The notes beneath the pieces were generated by a model. That model was not told where the DNA came from. It saw only the letters and a program-made list of their open reading frames with translations, and did no database searches. Shown piece by piece: positions 12,531-62,846 of a stretch of 64,000 nucleotides of DNA. The translations under genes and the position numbers were made by a program. Source of the stretch: Eledone cirrhosa (Eukaryota); contig OZ024748.1 of NCBI GenBank assembly GCA_964016885.1, positions 52,762,001-52,826,000 on the forward strand. Direction: 5' to 3'. Position 1 is the stretch's first letter, and every line of letters begins with the position of its first letter.

Positions 12531-13082
12531 ATAAAGACCATAATGCAAATTCACGCTTCTGCCAATTTACTGTCCTAATAATAATCTAAACTATAATCAA
12601 GTAAGGAGTGTGGAACTGCGTCCATAATATATTTTTTTTATCCTGTTTGTAAAATAAGTTGGATTACTTTGAATAAATAATTAATGAATTTTAGGATTTA
12701 GGACTGAACTCTGTTGATATTTCGCTCCGTCGATTTTGACTGCGCAGACCTTCTTGAATTTTTTCAGAAATAACACATGGTTACTGTGCATGATATTTTG
12801 CTAATGCATTAACTCCTCACAGGGTGTAGTAATGAAACTGTACAGTCTGGAGCATTCTTTGTGCTCCCACACAAATTCGTTTATCCACTATATAACATAT
12901 TGTGTCTACTCTGATATACAAATTCTTATTTACAAAATACGATTTTAGTACAATTATTGGATGAGTGGTTAATGGCAATCCTAGATGAAAACTAATTGTC
13001 TGGTTCATTATAATTATTGTACACACACACACACATATATATATATATGTATAGTTATGTAATAAACAACATAAGGCAATTA

Positions 13083-13144
13083 TTTCATTTACCAGCGGTT
13101 TCTTAAAAGCAAAAAAAAATTTGCTTTCAATCATCAGAATGAAA
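13083..13144 (-). ncRNA. Type I hammerhead ribozyme
   Basis: Minus strand: tttcatt-CTGATGA-ttgaaagcaaa/tttgcttttaa (helix II)-GAAA-cc gct gg-TA-aatgaaa; helix I 7 bp, GUA cleavage triplet. Confidence 0.88.
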
Positions 13145-13175
13145 AAATCCTGGTGTATTTATTGACGTTGGATTT

Positions 13176-13238
13176 TTTCATTCTGATGATTGAAAGCAAA
13201 ATTTTTTTTTGCTTTTAAGAAACCACTGGTAAATGAAA
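13176..13238 (+). ncRNA. Type I hammerhead ribozyme
   Basis: tttcatt-CTGATGA(13183-13189)-ttgaaagcaaaa/ttttgcttttaa-GAAA(13219-13222)-cc act gg-TA-aatgaaa; predicted cleavage after 13231. Confidence 0.88.
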
Positions 13239-13499
13239 TAATTGCCTTATGTTGTTTATTACATAACTATTAAGCTCTGTTACCTACATAGAGCACTCTT
13301 TTTCCTGGACTTTTCCGACGGAATTACTTCATTCACATATATACACACATATATATATATATATATATATACAATATTGGAAAAAAATCAAGGAAATAAA
13401 ATTAATAAATAGAATTTCATATTCTTGGTTTTTTTTTTCTAAGGATGTCATGAAAACCAAATTGAAGATAGCGAGTTTGGCTTTTACATCTACCTCCCT

Positions 13500-22022: not shown

Positions 22023-22259
22023 TAATAATAATAAATGTGAAGACTAAAATCCGAAGAGGGCTCGATAAGGTTATCATCATCATCATCATTTTACGTCCGC
22101 TTTTCCCTGCTTAAGTTTATAAAAACCATAGAGCAAATATTTATTAAAATAACAGATTAAAGTTTAAGCAAAGAATTGCTGCTGGTGAAAGCAGCAATTC
22201 TTTGCTTAAACTTTAATCTGTTATTTTAATAAATATATGTATATATATATATAGAGAGA

Positions 22260-23070
22260 AAAATCCAGCGTCCACATACTTCCTTCACAAAACTGATATC
22301 AAGAAGTCCTCTTGTGAACATGACCTGGGCATTACTGTCAGCAGTGATTTGCGTTGGACAAAGCATGTCTCTAAGATTGTCAAGAAGGCCGAGGGTGTCT
22401 TGGCATCACTCAGCAAGGCCTTTGTTAGCCGCTCTCTAGCTATCTATTTAAAGCGGTATACAGCTATGGTACGACCACACTTGGAATTCGCATCATCAGT
22501 CTGGAACCCCTATCTTGCTCAGAACATTGACCTCCTGGAAACTGTTCAGAGACGTGCAACCAAGCGCATACCCTCCATCAGACACCTACCATACTCTGAA
22601 CGCCTTGCTTCCCTGGGCATAGATTCATTGAAGCTTCGACGTCTGGCAATGGACTTGGTAAACACCCACAAAGTTATTAACCATCTCGCCAACAACAACC
22701 CTGAGCACCTTTTTGATCTCCATGTGTCTAACACACGTGGACATGCCTACAAAATCAGAAAACAGCACAGCTCACATGACTTTCGGAAACATTTTTTCAC
22801 GCTCAGAGTTGCTGAAGCATGGAACAAACTGCCTGCGTCAGTTGTTAGCTGCCGAGACACTGCATCTTTTAAAACCCTCATGCTTCCCGAAATACGCCCA
22901 AACTACATCCGATGTACCCCTTCCATACACATGCAAACATGTGTATATCATGACTCATGCACTGTTCATTTTCCTGACGTTTGTACATTACCCTATGTAC
23001 TATACATACACTTTTTGATGAGTTGTTGTGCACCTGAGCACTGTACACAATATTTCATTATTATTATTAT
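22260..23070 (+). mobile_element. 5'-truncated CR1-clade LINE (ORF2 C-terminus, 3' UTR, (ATT)n tail)
   Basis: HDLGITVSSDLRW...YTAMVRPHLEFASSVWNPY...LETVQRRATKRI...PYSERL..L...LKLRRL...TRGH...FFTLRVAEAWNKLP, diagnostic of CR1. Confidence 0.92.
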
Positions 23071-23330
23071 AATTGCTGCTGGTGAAAGCAGCGATCCTTT
23101 GCTTAAACTTTAATCTGTTATTTTAATAAATATATGTATATATATACTTGGTTGTTACTGATCTGTTCAGCTCGCTTGACTGCTTGTATATCATAAGAAT
23201 CCTGCATCTCTTATGCCTTTTGTTTGATGGGAACATGTTTTGGATTATGTTATACATAAGACTTCCATCTTCGAAATATGTATAATAAAAATAAATAGAG
23301 ATGATCTAAAGTAACTATCTTTCGTTTATT

Positions 23331-25944: not shown

Positions 25945-25975
<31 letters not shown>

Positions 25976-26060
25976 CGGTAAACAAAAAACAGACAAATGC
26001 ACCAGTAAATGTTATAAATACTATTAGTTTCATGCTTAGTGAGAGTGGGGGCGGGGGTTG

Positions 26061-26090
26061 CGACGTTTCGGGCATAAGCCCTTCATCAGG
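26061..26090 (-). ncRNA. Minimal hammerhead motif of Penelope-like type
   Basis: Minus strand: c-CTGATGA-a-gggc ttat gccc-GAAA-cg-TC; helix I poorly paired. Confidence 0.6.
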
Positions 26091-26123
26091 AGAGTGGTGG
26101 GAGGAACTCCTAGAAGGAGTGAG

Positions 26124-26184
<61 letters not shown>

Positions 26185-26910: not shown

Positions 26911-27019
26911 TAATAATAATAATAATAATAATGATTTCATTTATTCGCCACAAGGGCCAGGGTGAAACACCATATTGACAAGGAGAAGGCTAGCTCAATG
27001 TGGAGAGAGAGAGAGAGAG

Positions 27020-27650
27020 AGGAGACTGTGGCTCACATTGTATCCGAGTGTAAACACCTAGCCCAGACTCACTATAAAGACTGGAGACATGATGTGATGG
27101 GCAGGGTGATCCACTGGCACCTATGCAAAGTAAACAATTTACCACATTCTGAGAAGTGGTATGAGCATAGGCCAGAGTCGGTGATAGAAAACGATCAGGT
27201 GAAGGTGCTACGGGATTTTAGGATACAGACGGACAAGAAACTGGAACACAATAGACCTGACCTGGTGGGTGTGGACAAGGAAAAAAGATCGTGCCTGGTT
27301 GTGGATGTGGCCTGCCCATTTGACACGAGAGTGCAAGAAAAGGAGAGGGAGAAAATTAACCGATAACAGGACTTAAAGTGGGAGGTAAAAAGGATTTGGA
27401 ACTGCCATGAAGTCAGAGTCGTCCCGATTCTCATAGGCGCACTAGGTACTATCTCAAAGAGTTTCCAAGGATGGTTAAAGCAAGTTAGTCCAGCCCCGCT
27501 TTATGGAACACTTCAAAAGGCATGCTTGCTGGGAACAGCAAGAACCCTCCGATACGTCCTGAATATCTGAGGAAGCTGCCAGGTAGCGCCTTGATATTCA
27601 TTTCAACAAACTTTCCAGTTAAATAACATCAATGACTGAAACTCAAAGAA
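27020..27650 (+). mobile_element. 5'-truncated R4/Dong-clade non-LTR element (CCHC knuckle remnant plus restriction-like endonuclease), with premature stop
   Basis: ETVAHIVSEC...YKDWRHD...IHWHLC...WYEHRPESVIEN...DFRIQTD...NRPDLV...DVACP.D...EKEREK..R*QDLKWEV...VVPILIGALG...LQKACLLGTARTLR; followed by (TAA)n. Confidence 0.9.
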
Positions 27651-32412: not shown

Positions 32413-32457
32413 ATTAGCCGACAATGTTTCATCCTATAAAGGACTCATCAGGGCAAT
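32413..32457 (-). ncRNA. Type I hammerhead ribozyme (solo)
   Basis: Minus strand: attgcc-CTGATGA-gtcct ttat aggat-GAAA-c att g-TC-ggctaat; GUC cleavage triplet, all three helices pairable. Confidence 0.88.
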
Positions 32458-38080: not shown

Positions 38081-38237
38081 GTATGTATATATATATATGT
38101 ATATATATATGTATGTATATATATATGTATGTATATATATATATATATGTATGTACGTTATTCCGGGTTGAATCGGAGGTAACCACAGTAAGTAAGGTAC
38201 TCAATACATAGCAGAGTATAATAGTTTTAATATAGAT

Positions 38238-38288
38238 GAGATTCTACAGGACTAGAACTGTTTCATTCATTAGAAATCATCAGGAATC
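38238..38288 (-). ncRNA. Type I hammerhead ribozyme
   Basis: Minus strand: gattc-CTGATGA-tttctaatgaat-GAAA-cag ttctagtc ctg-TA-gaatc. Confidence 0.8.
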
Positions 38289-38289
38289 A

Positions 38290-38342
38290 GAGATTCCTGA
38301 TGATTTCTAATGAATGAAACAGTTCTAGTCCTGTAGAATCTC
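38290..38342 (+). ncRNA. Type I hammerhead ribozyme
   Basis: gagattc-CTGATGA(38297-38303)-tttctaatgaat-GAAA(38316-38319)-cag ttctagtc ctg-TA-gaatctc; helix I 7 bp, helix III 4 bp, weak helix II. Confidence 0.82.
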
Positions 38343-38521
38343 ATCTATATTAAAACTATATATGTATGTATATATATATGTATGTATATATATATATATA
38401 TGTATGTATATATACATGTATATATATATGTATGTATATATATATATGTATGTATATATGTATATATATATATACATACATATATATATACATACATATA
38501 TATATGCATACATATATATAT

Positions 38522-38833: not shown

Positions 38834-39699
38834 GTATACACATATATATATATATACATAAATATATATGAGGGTGAAGTTATAGTTCACTTGAAGCATT
38901 GTGTAATGAGGTATAAACGTTTGAATTTGTAAAGCCAAACAATGCAGGTATGGACATAGGATAAAAAAAAAAAATGCAAATGCAAAAGATATTGTTGCCA
39001 AGCTATTTAGCTTGCCAAGCTATTTAGAACACTGGTCTAACCACTTTACTTCCCTCCGAAGAAGAGATATTATCTCTAAAATTAAGGACATTTAAATAAA
39101 TCTAAGGTAAAAGACTAATTGTCAACAATATCTTTTGCATTTGCATTTTTTTTTTTATCCTATGTCCATACCTGCATTGTTTGGCTTTACAAATTCAAAC
39201 ATTAATACATATATATGTATGTATATATATATATATGTATATATATAAATCAGGATAGAACTTGTTTAAAATTAGTTAGACTATTATTTAACAGAGTACT
39301 CAATACTTGGTGTAGCAGAGTATGGCTATGTTATATACAATAGTATATATAGAGTAATGTGACTGCTAAAGGGTTAAAATATCCAAGAAACAAGCACATT
39401 ACCAGGTGTTATCCTAGATGGGGGTGAGGTAAGATAGGGGTCTTCAGAATATTTGTGTTGGGCACTCATTTGCAAGGAACGTATTTCAGGACGTTTTTTT
39501 ATGAACCCTATTTTCTGTACATGAGAAAGCACCATTGAAATGTAGGGGTGGAAAAGGCGGTAGTTCCATACAGCACTACCTCACCCACCTGAATTCCTTG
39601 GAAACAAACCTACCAAAGAACTTCCCCTGAGATGCAAGCTTGTAGTAGACCAGCTAATCCTGTATAGGTAAGAACCATAGATTTCATTTCATTTTCAAA

Positions 39700-45194: not shown

Positions 45195-45540
45195 AAGGCG
45201 CATGGCTTAGTGGTTAGAGCATTGGGCTTGCAATCGAAAGGTTGTGAGTTCAATTCTCAGACCGGGTGATGTGTTGTTTCCTTGAGCAAGACACTTTATT
45301 TCACATTGCTCCAGTTTACTCAGCTGTAGAAATGAGATGATAGGGTCTGAGGTCCATATCATTCCACTGTAAAGTGGTCGTGTAGGTGCCACGGCAAAAA
45401 AGCACCCAGCACTCACTGTAAATGAGGTTGGTGTTAGGAAGGGCATCCAGCTGTAGAGATCAAGCCAGAATCAGTTCCCGTCCCACCCTTGCAAGCAGGG
45501 AAAAGTGGACGTAAAATGATGATGATGATGATGATGATGA
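45195..45540 (+). mobile_element. SINE family B, full length
   Basis: Near-identical to the 23909 copy; its tail expands into a (GAT)n array reaching about 45905. Confidence 0.9.
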
Positions 45541-54625: not shown

Positions 54626-54750
54626 TATATTTTTTCAATGTGGTCTACCCTTCATGGTAGGGTCCATACCATAGATAGAACTCGAGTAATCTATAGAAAG
54701 GTTCTGTGTTCCGCTGGGTTAATTTCTTAGATACAGAGTCTGATATGAGA

Positions 54751-55112
54751 TATTAAATTAACAATTGAAAATAATAACAACAAAGTCAAGTTATTTTACC
54801 GACTCATATCATTGTTTAACGATTGTTTCGAAGGGTTGATCATATTGACAGATCTATAGCAGTTATATAACTGTATAGTATCAGACTTCATATATAGGTT
54901 CGATTCAAAGCTCATATATAGGTTCAATCAGACTCTCTTCGTCCGAAGAAGACAGTCTGATTCAACTTATATATCCAGTCTGATAGTATACAGTAATATA
55001 ACTGCTATAGATCTGTCAATATGATCAACCATCTGAAACGCTCATAAAACAATGATATGAATAGGTAAAATAATTTGACTTTGTTGTTATTATTTTCATT
55101 GTTAAATTAATA
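54751..55112. repeat. Long imperfect palindrome (arms about 170-190 bp)
   Basis: Arms pair from tattaaattaacaat...gatcatattgacagatctatagcagttata to the centre tcttcg-tc-cgaaga. Confidence 0.85.
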
Positions 55113-57359
55113 CCTAATATATATATATATATATAAGTTTTGATGATTTAGTGTTAAAAATAAAACCTAATGATAAAATAAAAATATATTTTAAAAATGA
55201 GGCCCCTGGGGCTTTGTTGCCCAAAGCTATAGCTTCTTTAGCTTATAGGTAAATTATTTCTCATCAAGTTGGTGTTTGGAACATAGCTTAACAAAGAGTT
55301 CTTACAGAAAATTCTAATGAAAACTTTCAACTTAAATCTAGATGCTTTAAAATAAATTTGCTTTCTTAAAACAAAGAACAGTTTCAGGTGGGTTGGTATC
55401 AAAAGAATTAATAAACTAACATTTAGTACATGTGTTTCTAATCCAATCCAGGGCCTTCACACGTTTGTTGGAGGAACCCTTCCCTGGTTGACCTCCACTG
55501 CTTTCTAATTTGGTTTTGGTCATGTCAGAGGTTTAGCTGTACTCACCACATTTGGCTAATTGTGTGTTGGTGAGGCTATTTAACCCATGGTTGGAGTGGA
55601 TAGTTGTCAACTCCGAGGAGTTGATGCACCTTTTAACAACTCTTGTTTTGGTTTTGTGTTTTTGTTGCAAGGTTTCTACGTACCCTCCTCACCAGATCAG
55701 GGTCTGTTGAGGGAGTCAGTTTAGTCACTGACCACTTGACTATGAAGCAGGTTGTACTGGTTACAAAGAAGCCTGACCTGAGGAATTCATCTTGACTAAA
55801 CCAGACTAAGGTCTGGTGGGGGAGCTGGTTTAGTCACCAACCACTAGACCTGAAGCAGGTTGTACCGTGTTGCATGTTACCAGTAGCAGGCAGAAGCCTG
55901 ATTAGACTTTGATCATGGTCATGTCAGATGTGTTTATCAATGTCAAATGAGTGTTTTGATATCACTGTGGATTTATGTCCTGAGGTTGTCTTGAAGTGTT
56001 TTGTTAAATAAAGATCCTGTGATAATTCTCTGTCATTTATCTGCCATTGTGTTTCAAGGCTTTTGTGAATATTTGTGATTTTATTTTACCATCTTTGTTT
56101 AAGGTTTAACCTCTTAGAAAGAAAGAGGGTGAAAGAAACAGAGACTGGGAGAGATAAAAAAAAAAACAGACTAAGAGAGAGAGAGTGAGAGAAAGGGTAA
56201 GATAGAGATAGTGAGAAAGAGAGTGAGATAAACAGAGATTAAGAAAAGGAGATGTGAGAGAGAGCAAGAGAAAGAGAGCGAGATAAACTGAGATTAAGAT
56301 AAACTGAGAAAGAGAGAGAGGGAAAGAAAGAGAGAGAGAGCTCTTTCTGGTTTACATAGCAATTGTCCTGGAGTTTACAGCTTTTTATTGCTTCACATAT
56401 CTGTGTGTATTTATACATGTATGTGAGTGTATATATATATACATACATTAAATTAGATTTCAAACTATTGTATCATCATCAACTGATTTATATACTGATT
56501 AAGTAGTGAAAGACAGGTTGTTTGTTTTATTCAACTTTGTCCATGTTTTATTTTTGTTATTGTCTTCGCTCACCCTACCCTCTCACCCTACCCCTCTCCT
56601 CCACCCTCCACCCTTCTTTCTTCATCTTCATCTCCACTCATCTAAATCTATCTATAGCCAAAAGGCAGCAATGTTAACTATTTTTCTTCCATTCTTCTTT
56701 CTATATTTCCTATGGTTTTTCTTTACTATCTCATCATCATTATTTCTTAACTTGCCTCATTAAAATCATTAGTAAACACATTAGCCACCATAAAACCAAA
56801 TTAGTTTTCATCATCACACGAAACTTAATTTTAAATTGTTTTATGTTCTTTTTATTTATTTATTTATTTATTTATTTATATATTTTTTTAATTCTTTGTT
56901 TTTTTTATTTGTATTTTAGAAAAAACTTGTTTTATTTATTTTTATTTTTTTTAAATTTATTTCTAAAAAAAATTGTTTTGTTTTTTTTGCATGTGTAAAA
57001 AAAATGTTTTATTTATTTATTTATTTGTGTATTTGCTGATTTTTTTGTTTGTATGTTTATGTTTGCTTACTTGTTGTTTCGCACCAAGCATCATATGAGC
57101 TGTAACTCAATGCAATTGTGTGCATCAAGTTTGATTAAGCAGAAATGAATTAAAATTAAATGAGTAGAGAAATTATATAAAAACAAGATAAAACAACTAA
57201 AACAAGCATATACATACATACACACACATGTATATGTATATATTATACACATATATATATATACACAGTGTATATATATATATAACAGATATAATATAAA
57301 TAGAATATAAAAACTAAAGACAAGAAAACAGAAACATATATATAAGTACATATATGTGT

Positions 57360-61420: not shown

Positions 61421-62565
61421 TCATCATCATCATCGTTTAACGTCCGTGTTCCATGCTTGCATGGGTTTGGACGGGAGTTTTCCCACTTGAGGCAAGAGTG
61501 GTTGTCTTGCTCGCATAGGACTGTCTGGCGGGTTTTCTACGGGCTGGATGCCCTTCGTAACACCAACCACATTACAGTGTGGAACTGGGAGGTTTTTACC
61601 GTGTTGCCTACACGCCACATTACAGCGTGGACTGTGTGTTTTTTTGTTTGTGACACCTACACGACCTCATTTGTTTCGGCCTGGATGTTGTGGGGACCAA
61701 CATAACTTTACATGAAAGGGGTGGTTTGGATGGGGTGGAGGTAGTGGGACGGGGGTGTATTTTGTTAGAGATGCCTACTGACTGTAGTAAAGTTTCACTT
61801 TGCACTTAGGTAAGGCGGGTCTTCTCTATTACTGTGTAGCGCCAAAGGTCTCGGTCCAGTGACAACGTCTTGGAGAGGTGTAAGTGTGTGAGATCGGAAT
61901 TTATCAAGTCGTCCCAGGTTTTTCTCGGTCTGCTACTCCGTGGCTACCGTCTATTTTTATTGCCCTGCACTTTTTTATACAGCTGTCGTCTTTCATGCGC
62001 ATCACGTGACCATACCAACGTAGCCTTCTCTCGAGTAAACAACATCTGATCCTCTTATTCTAATTTCTCCCTTAGTTCGTTATGCTTTGCCGTTCACATA
62101 TATTACTATTACACATCCAGCGGAGCATGCAAGCTTCGTTCCTCTCTAGTCTGCGTATATCCTCTGCACACAATGCCCAGGTCTCACTGCCATGTAACAT
62201 TGCTGTTCGTATGCAGGCATCATACAGCCTGCTTTTCATTTTTAGGGAGAACCCTTTAGCGGCCAATAGTGGTATAAGCTCTCTGAACTTTTCCATCCAG
62301 TTCTGACTCTAGCTACTGTACTTTCAGAGCACCCTCCCCCACTGCTGATTTTGTCACCCAGGTAACGTAAGCTGTCCACTATTTCTATAGAACCATCTGT
62401 GCAATGGAATGAGTTAGTATTCTTTGGCACTTGCTGCCACTTATTGCACCAGAGCACTGTCCACATATAAAATCTATATTCTTAGTTAGCTTACCTGTGA
62501 TCCCACTACATCTTTTATGTACCCATACTTTGCATTTGGAACATAAAATGGAGTTTCTATCTATA
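61421..62565 (-). mobile_element. 5'-truncated, frameshifted RTE LINE
   Basis: NSILCSKCKVWVHKRCSGI...; EIVDSLRYLGDKISSGGGC..S..ARVRTGW; KFREL.PLL...RLYDACIRTAMLHGSETW...LERNEACMLRWMC; 3' UTR and (GAT)n tail. Confidence 0.92.
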
Positions 62566-62846
62566 CAAGTGTCTTGCTCAAGGAAACAACACATCACCCG
62601 GTCTGAGTGATGTGTTGTTTCTTTGAGCAAGACAGTTTATTTCACATTGCTCAATTTACTCTATATATATATATATACATTGAAATCTACCTATTTATGG
62701 TAGGACTAACTATGTTAGAATTCCATGCAGTTTTGAAGAGATAATTTCTATCAGATCATGCCCGTGAGAACTATAATTTTTGTAGTAGGTTTCAGCACAC
62801 AAGCTTCCATCAAAGATTCTATTGAGCTACAGAGCTACAGCTATAT

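Follow-up and report, generated by a model that had tools for sequence, protein, structure and literature searches.

The locus lies in a 64-kb window (the whole stretch of DNA that was analysed) of AT-rich eukaryotic DNA full of microsatellites. It consists of an asymmetric, ORF-less palindromic unit of roughly 285 bp, called here the 13-kb locus, which spans positions 13051 to about 13331–13336. Its two inverted arms, 13051–13150 and 13170–13270, match in 99 of 101 alignment columns and are separated by a spacer of 19 nt (13151–13169); they differ by one substitution (13096/13225) and by one indel within the A/T stretch of helix II. The near-perfect inverted repeats announced by the original prediction are thus present, but the extent given for the unit, up to 13294, has to be revised, since the right arm runs on to about 13331–13336 and its tail is one-sided. 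Read in element sense, the short, tail-less arm (13051–13150) lies on the minus strand and stops at the hexamer AACTAT, flush on a (TA)n microsatellite. The long arm (13170–13270) lies on the plus strand, its start being defined by the arm alignment and by a jump in depth at 13170 in sequencing runs X1 and X7; it passes the same AACTAT (13265–13270, +), the first fixed 3' end of the family, and extends into a tail of 61–66 nt (13271–13334, +, the end falling at 13331–13336), after which (AT)n resumes. Within the tail, a hairpin with a conserved 3' flank (13274–13299, +), whose stem has 7 bp (13274–80/13288–94), starts 3 nt past the first end. The unit is framed by a left target microsatellite, (AC)n(AT)n, that adjoins the short arm (13020–13050) and by a right one, (AT)n (13337–13371), the insertion target being (TA)n. 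The left flank shares a 20-bp (AC)3(AT)7 match with 13343–13362; a target-site duplication is here inseparable from the microsatellite.

Each arm holds a type I hammerhead motif, at 13083–13144 on the minus strand (C3 at 13137) and at 13176–13238 on the plus strand. The two motifs face outward, with their cores 46 bp apart, and both contain CUGAUGA, GAAA, a CC/GG helix III, GUA and a 7-bp helix I, helix II measuring 12 bp in the right arm and 11 bp in the left one. The right motif is built from helix I (13176–82/13232–38), the core (13183–89), helix II (13190–201/13207–18), GAAA (13219–22) and a near-palindromic helix III (13222–30); in the short arm the centre of helix III carries a private A>G change that still pairs as G-U in a dimer. 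The core elements CUGANGA, GAAA and UH follow one another in type I order together with three helices, and cleavage is predicted after 13231 on the plus strand and after 13090 on the minus strand. Scanning the window with a structure descriptor, as proposed in the original prediction, yielded exactly two matches, namely the two arm motifs. In 200 block-wise dinucleotide shuffles the loose descriptor gave a mean of 0.045 matches with a maximum of 1, and the strict one (helix I ≥6, helix II ≥4, helix III ≥2) gave none, so that the claim of a complete outward-facing hammerhead in each arm holds at the level of sequence. The covariance-model search proposed alongside ended differently: Rfam RF00163 Hammerhead_1 (threshold 34 bits) found no match on the arms even at E≤10. 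At the gathering score the only Rfam match in the whole window was tRNA-like; at E≤10 the locus gave 42 sub-threshold matches, mostly to microRNA-precursor models that fit any long hairpin, and a single arm gave 12 chance matches. Among the controls, the motif at 32413–32457 scored 21.6 bits and the minimal motif at 26062–26089 was missed.

When the arms are folded in isolation, the hammerhead is the minimum-free-energy fold (z −2.2 and −1.9); once the tail is added to an arm, helix I should open, its predicted pair probability being 0.02. When two monomers pair through an intermolecular helix III of 8 bp, the predicted gain is 9.0 kcal/mol for the right arm and 7.6 for the left. In Penelope-like elements (PLEs) motifs with a palindromic helix III are described as a dimer design of which single copies cleave little or not at all (PMC4209133, PMC7229834), and poor cleavage of PLE hammerheads on their own is also reported in PMC6765202. 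The base pair at the foot of helix II is U10.1-A11.1 and not the usual G-C. Non-G-C pairs at 10.1-11.1 occur in nature, U-U variants being described (PMC3088659; for U-U also PMC7229834); no activity data for hammerheads with U10.1-A11.1 were found in the literature searched.

The region 13151–13332 was compared with four sequencing runs from three studies, X1 being possibly the window's own sample. Other copies that keep the core, to which the original prediction had also pointed, were recovered in large number: X1 contributed 2169 contigs and X7 3917 reads, to which organism B added 37 contigs and organism C 7. The family is high-copy; this is based on contig and read counts, summed contig depth not being used as copy number. 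Scans of metagenomes with two arm patterns gave 0 matches each. Among the sequencing runs listed with this sequence there was no RNA data set. Among the variants listed at ≥5%, only N7 of the 13 core positions varies widely (T>G, 40–48%), and G8>A is found in the family at 3 read starts. Since the variants spare the core except for N7 and the rare G8>A, the hammerhead core is constrained in the source elements and conserved across the family. The helices show five one-sided changes that keep pairing and four that break it, two of these lying beside the length-variable loop and being unphased, and no phased two-sided compensatory change was seen among the family variants. Pairing is retained by the two variants in helix I and by the one in helix III, and helix II often shows G-C in place of G-U (31–37%); the pair-breaking variants of helix II are U10.1>C (9–18%) and T13213>C (2–8%). 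Because position 10.1 (13190) is thus C in 9–18% of copies opposite an invariant A11.1 (13218), 10.1/11.1 may be an unpaired position, as in the U-U Hydra motifs.

The ends of the copies follow the layout of the locus. Some end at the equivalent of 13270 and continue with (AT)n (27 X1 contigs and 246 X7 reads), others continue to at least 13332 (X1 and X5). In 662 reads and 16 contigs the loose ends before 13170 close with the spacer in reverse complement; the spacer (13151–13169, −) is therefore upstream sequence of the element itself and belongs to the short arm. It contains an AATAAA at 13163–13158 (−) that is kept in the loose-end consensus of other copies and may be due to chance in AT-rich DNA; AATAAA or ATTAAA is present in the 20 nt before helix I in 5 of the 25 Hydra rows of the hammerhead table of PMC8557442. 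At all five common variable sites the two arms carry the same allele; as this has a chance of 0.07–0.08 even without linkage, it lends weak support to an origin of both arms from one RNA molecule. Read ends of X7 at 13240, 13243 and 13325 were rejected as biological ends: all are placed on AATT in a RAD library and are therefore treated as restriction cuts, which they most likely are.

Near-perfect inverted arms around a short spacer could also be the mark of a fold-back DNA transposon or MITE, or of an assembly artefact, and none of the contigs and reads of the four runs spans the 13-kb locus itself, which is thus without independent read support. The artefact is contradicted by the joint, which occurs in raw reads of another study. 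A transposon or MITE should have equal terminal inverted repeats, but these are lacking, the tail at one end having no partner. The constraint on the hammerhead core is at the RNA level, and two more palindromes of the same build are present in the window (38155–38359 and 2620–2785). We regard this explanation as largely refuted and hardly credible.

The palindrome at 38155–38359 is a second back-to-back pair of hammerheads from another family. It has perfect arms of 68 bp around a 3-nt centre, a hammerhead core in both arms with U10.1-U11.1 as in many Hydra rows, a short end of AACTAT-(AT)n and, in its tail of about 65 nt, a related hairpin. The one at 2620–2785 is a decayed palindrome of this 38-kb family whose fold-back point falls within the region of the hammerhead core and which has a one-sided tail. 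A single element at 25970–26125 (−) has a minimal hammerhead core (26062–26089), (TA)n on both sides and an AACTAT 3' end, and shows no clear helix I. AACTAT is hence shared as the 3' end by window elements at 25970–25975 and 38221–38226. Comparison of the 13-kb tail with that at 38156–38220 gave a score of 29, which was equalled or exceeded in 42 of 2000 shuffles; with AACTAT included, 0 of 2000 shuffles came as high. Another hammerhead motif, with G10.1, lies at 32413–32457 (−), 6–9 nt after (TA)n; its Rfam score of 21.6 bits compares with a gathering score of 34. Two longer and older palindromes (54743–55120 and 38911–39208), each with one arm flush on (TA)n, share the central motif TCCGAAGAAGA; they contain no canonical hammerhead and possibly represent another PLE type. 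Moreover, a short palindrome at 22134–22239 and a direct copy of one of its arms at 23071–23136 enclose an open frame (22217–23110), which resembles a LINE C-terminal region, without Pfam match. A frame at 62388–62636 (−) has a PHD-like zinc finger (Pfam PHD_2, 26.6 bits against a cut-off of 28) and may be retroelement-derived, and the frame at 26935–27363 (+), also without Pfam match, resembles the restriction-like endonuclease end of a non-LTR element. A tRNA-like match of 31.2 bits at 45203–45260 (+) is probably a SINE head.

In the assignment of the family to a clade, Neptune was the initial candidate and was dropped for Hydra after comparison with the material of PMC8557442. The Hydra comparisons were made by eye against the hammerhead table and consensus ends of that paper, without a score. 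In this material, U follows CUGANGA in 15 of 25 Hydra families, a 9-nt palindromic or near-palindromic helix III is found in 19 of 25 (16 of them strict around one base), and 26 of the 27 listed families prefer (TA)n; two table rows are identical, so that the families are not all independent. The hammerhead and the tail hairpin near the 3' end at the 13-kb locus are of Hydra style by eye, and the Hydra-type insertion feature of an inverted 5'-truncated copy joined at its 5' end is present. In Hydra-1_Obim helix III reads acca-a-tggt, against acca-c-tggt at the 13-kb locus, and AACTATTA stands behind the ribozyme, like AACTAT after the 13-kb hammerhead; its helices I and II are unlike those found here and it is a different family (PMC8557442). 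The first 7 nt of the tail hairpin and the 14 nt at 13286–13299 are identical by eye to the start of Hydra-1_Ajap, where another hairpin of this kind follows after about 61 nt, and the tail hairpin also resembles by eye the 3' end of Hydra-2_Amil (PMC8557442). Penelope-13_HM has, as at the 13-kb locus, an inverted 5'-truncated copy and a hammerhead on both strands (PMC8557442). On the other hand, U10.1-A11.1 is absent from all 25 Hydra rows of the table, the 15 rows with U at 10.1 having U-U or U-C. The 13-kb locus further differs from Hydra elements in being ORF-less, in its helix II of 11–12 bp and in its one-sided tail (13271 to 13331–13336) of 61–66 nt, which is longer than the 30–40 bp published for PLEs (PMC8557442). 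No RT or GIY-YIG Pfam match was obtained in 150 of the 165 complex frames of the window. Because U-A is found in none of the 25 Hydra rows and no ORF is tied to the family, its end is likely, and not firmly, the 3'-end of a Hydra-clade PLE. The original proposal of an ORF-less Penelope-like insertion with an inverted partial repeat is supported and can be narrowed to the Hydra type.

We consider it probable that the palindrome is a 3'-end stub of a high-copy Hydra-clade PLE, formed when reverse transcription of the element RNA started from each of the two 3' ends at a single DNA break, at two fixed RNA positions some 61–66 nt from each other. A Hydra-type RT and GIY-YIG protein would cut the (TA)n target. 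The top strand would then prime at the AACTAT site (putative start site 1) and be extended over 119 nt of template, yielding the antisense of the short arm and the spacer, and the bottom strand would prime at the tail end (putative start site 2) and be extended over about 165 nt, yielding the antisense of the tail and the long arm. Both cDNAs would stop near the 5' region of the RNA, 13–32 nt before the core, and their two ends would be joined head to head, a geometry expected if the 3'-OH on either strand of a single break serves as primer for a first-strand cDNA. On this reading the hammerhead is under selection in the source elements, where it would act as a dimer or with the help of a protein, and is a passenger in the 13-kb copy. 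All six full-core arms in four window insertions begin within about 6–36 nt of C3, a clustering with a chance of 8e-3 to 2e-6 under exponential truncation (mean 100–1000 nt), which suggests that the arm starts are due to run-off near the 5' end of the RNA. The promoter of Penelope from D. virilis lies inside the pLTR (PMC2377424), in agreement with an RNA start near the hammerhead.

The palindrome might instead come from one folded-back molecule, either because an antisense template primed itself, as modelled in PMC3846280, or because the hairpin RNA of an older palindrome was reverse-transcribed whole. The plain form of this, snap-back of a cDNA, is excluded because of the polarity of the spacer, which is element-sense on the strand carrying the cDNA of the long arm: the long cDNA would give an antisense loop on the bottom strand, but the loop is sense, and snap-back of the short cDNA would be without a template for the tail. 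The order on the top strand of antisense arm, antisense spacer, sense arm and tail does fit a self-primed antisense RNA, and the arms are nearly identical. Moreover, the exact 19-nt spacer register recurs across loci (174 X7 reads, 2 X1 contigs and 1 X5 contig) and in organism B, which could mean that whole palindromes are re-copied and counts against two primings. Opposite-strand joint reads in X7 cluster just upstream of the ribozyme, 221 of the 229 listed falling at 13151–13178. However, the four junction letters at 13165–13168 differ among copies of the same register (in 5–46% of about 185 reads, 8–34 starts) and there are at least 10 other joint registers, so that independent events at a hot spot are indicated. 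A folded-back molecule would also require exact trimming at AACTAT, and the single substitution between the arms leaves no pattern of A-to-I editing. Unequal ends, spacer polarity and the joint cluster thus favour two primings over fold-back, which we judge unlikely, and mark the start of the template RNA.

Equally improbable in our view, though built on the same two-ended reaction, is that the family is a short non-autonomous element in its own right, of about 185 nt, a Hydra-dependent SINE or a relative of retrozymes, and does not represent the truncated end of a coding element. In X7 the loose ends upstream match one another at 0.70 over 30 letters, compared with 0.81–0.88 for the internal loose end at 13303, and many copies therefore seem to stop 15–20 nt before 13170. 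The high copy number would suit such an element, and non-LTR retrozymes have been proposed to derive from pLTRs (10.64898/2026.07.22.740005). Run-off to an RNA start inside the pLTR, where the promoter of the D. virilis element is placed (PMC2377424), would nevertheless give the same picture. No tandem units are present at the 13-kb locus, and a joint from tail to arm start, indicative of a tandem or circle, is not found among the joints listed. The insertion of a retrozyme, offered by the original prediction as the other possibility, is likewise not supported at the 13-kb locus, no tandem array of hammerhead units being found over 13051–13334.

Returning to two primings at one break, a more specific and rather doubtful version can be formulated. 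Each stub would document in full the run-off copying of one RNA by a dimeric Hydra-type RT-endonuclease working from both break ends, with twin hairpins about 61 nt apart setting the start sites and the 5' end of the RNA lying 15–35 nt before the hammerhead; the family itself would perhaps consist of a short non-autonomous RNA whose hammerhead carries U10.1-A11.1 and which has spread large numbers of 100-bp dsRNA hairpins through the genome.

The original prediction further held that a transcript across both arms could switch between self-cleavage and dsRNA. Since the hammerheads face outward, transcription across the palindrome produces the antisense arm before the sense arm whichever strand is read, and the balance is predicted to be one-sided. 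By the time the cut site emerges in a growing plus-strand RNA, the left arm is predicted to have captured 59.6 of the first 62 bases of the right arm by pairing. Forcing the hammerhead in the palindrome RNA is predicted to cost 71 kcal/mol at 37 °C, rising to 90 at 15 °C, and with only the 31 nearest bases of the left arm included the predicted cost is already 27 kcal/mol. The motifs are on opposite strands and therefore cannot dimerise within one transcript. Folding thus predicts that read-through RNA of the 13-kb copy would form a 100-bp hairpin and no balanced switch, and the proposal is not supported; a dsRNA fate, with editing or small RNAs, is possible if the locus is transcribed. That the host uses the locus as an RNA element toggling between the two states has in its favour that both cores are intact in sequence. 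A 100-bp hairpin would, if transcribed, be a substrate for dsRNA enzymes, which counts on the same side. But the antisense arm comes first on either strand and the hairpin is predicted to be strongly favoured, helix III is of the weak dimer type of which single PLE motifs show little or no cleavage (PMC4209133, PMC7229834), and the arms, copied only recently from an abundant repeat, need no selection at the 13-kb locus to have intact cores. We therefore hold such a host function to be very improbable. A bacterial promoter scan of the locus stayed at chance level and is not relevant here.

As a single locus the palindrome carries little weight, being one of very many stubs in a described layout. 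As a stub, it is a clean record of Penelope-like integration, a step that PMC8557442 names as open. Any transcribed palindromes of this kind would enlarge the host's pool of dsRNA, but not as ribozyme switches.

The head-to-head layout with a shorter inverted pLTR copy and a tail at one end corresponds to the described PLE insertion unit (PMC3846280; PMC8557442, legend of Fig. 2), with which the 13-kb locus shares the head-to-head order, the one-sided tail and the AT-rich target; compared with the unit of PMC3846280, nothing but the two ends is left here. For palindromes that paper invokes an antisense template that primes itself, whereas two primings are the better fit to the data from the 13-kb locus. 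Dual hammerheads on opposite strands, 100–700 bp apart, were reported in 2014 as truncated PLEs (PMC4209133). The metazoan PLE hammerheads of that report combine, like the 13-kb motifs, a long helix II with a weak palindromic helix III for dimers; they differ in that G10.1-C11.1 is called highly conserved, against U-A at the 13-kb locus, where the cores are closer to each other. PAc, a Poseidon element from green anole, cuts and extends both strands at an AT-rich target, begins reverse transcription at two positions inside its RNA that delimit the tail, and inserts without need for its hammerhead (PMC11167929). This is the mechanism proposed above for the 13-kb locus; PAc, however, belongs to another clade and its hammerhead overlaps the start of the ORF. 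Metazoan non-LTR retrozymes are, like the 13-kb locus, non-coding, with a type I hammerhead and PLE-dependent, but they form head-to-tail arrays that give circular RNA, whereas the 13-kb locus is one head-to-head pair (PMC7229834; 10.64898/2026.07.22.740005). The axolotl HHR_Amex2 is also devoid of G10.1-C11.1 (it has U-U) and cleaves better as a dimer (PMC7229834). No description of the family, or of octopus PLE hammerhead palindromes, was found in the literature searched, in which PMC8557442 was the sole relevant paper; its supplements, or those of the bioRxiv preprint, may list closer families. Set against published PLE ends, the family thus shows small departures, namely the U-A base of helix II, the length of that helix and the tail of 61–66 nt.
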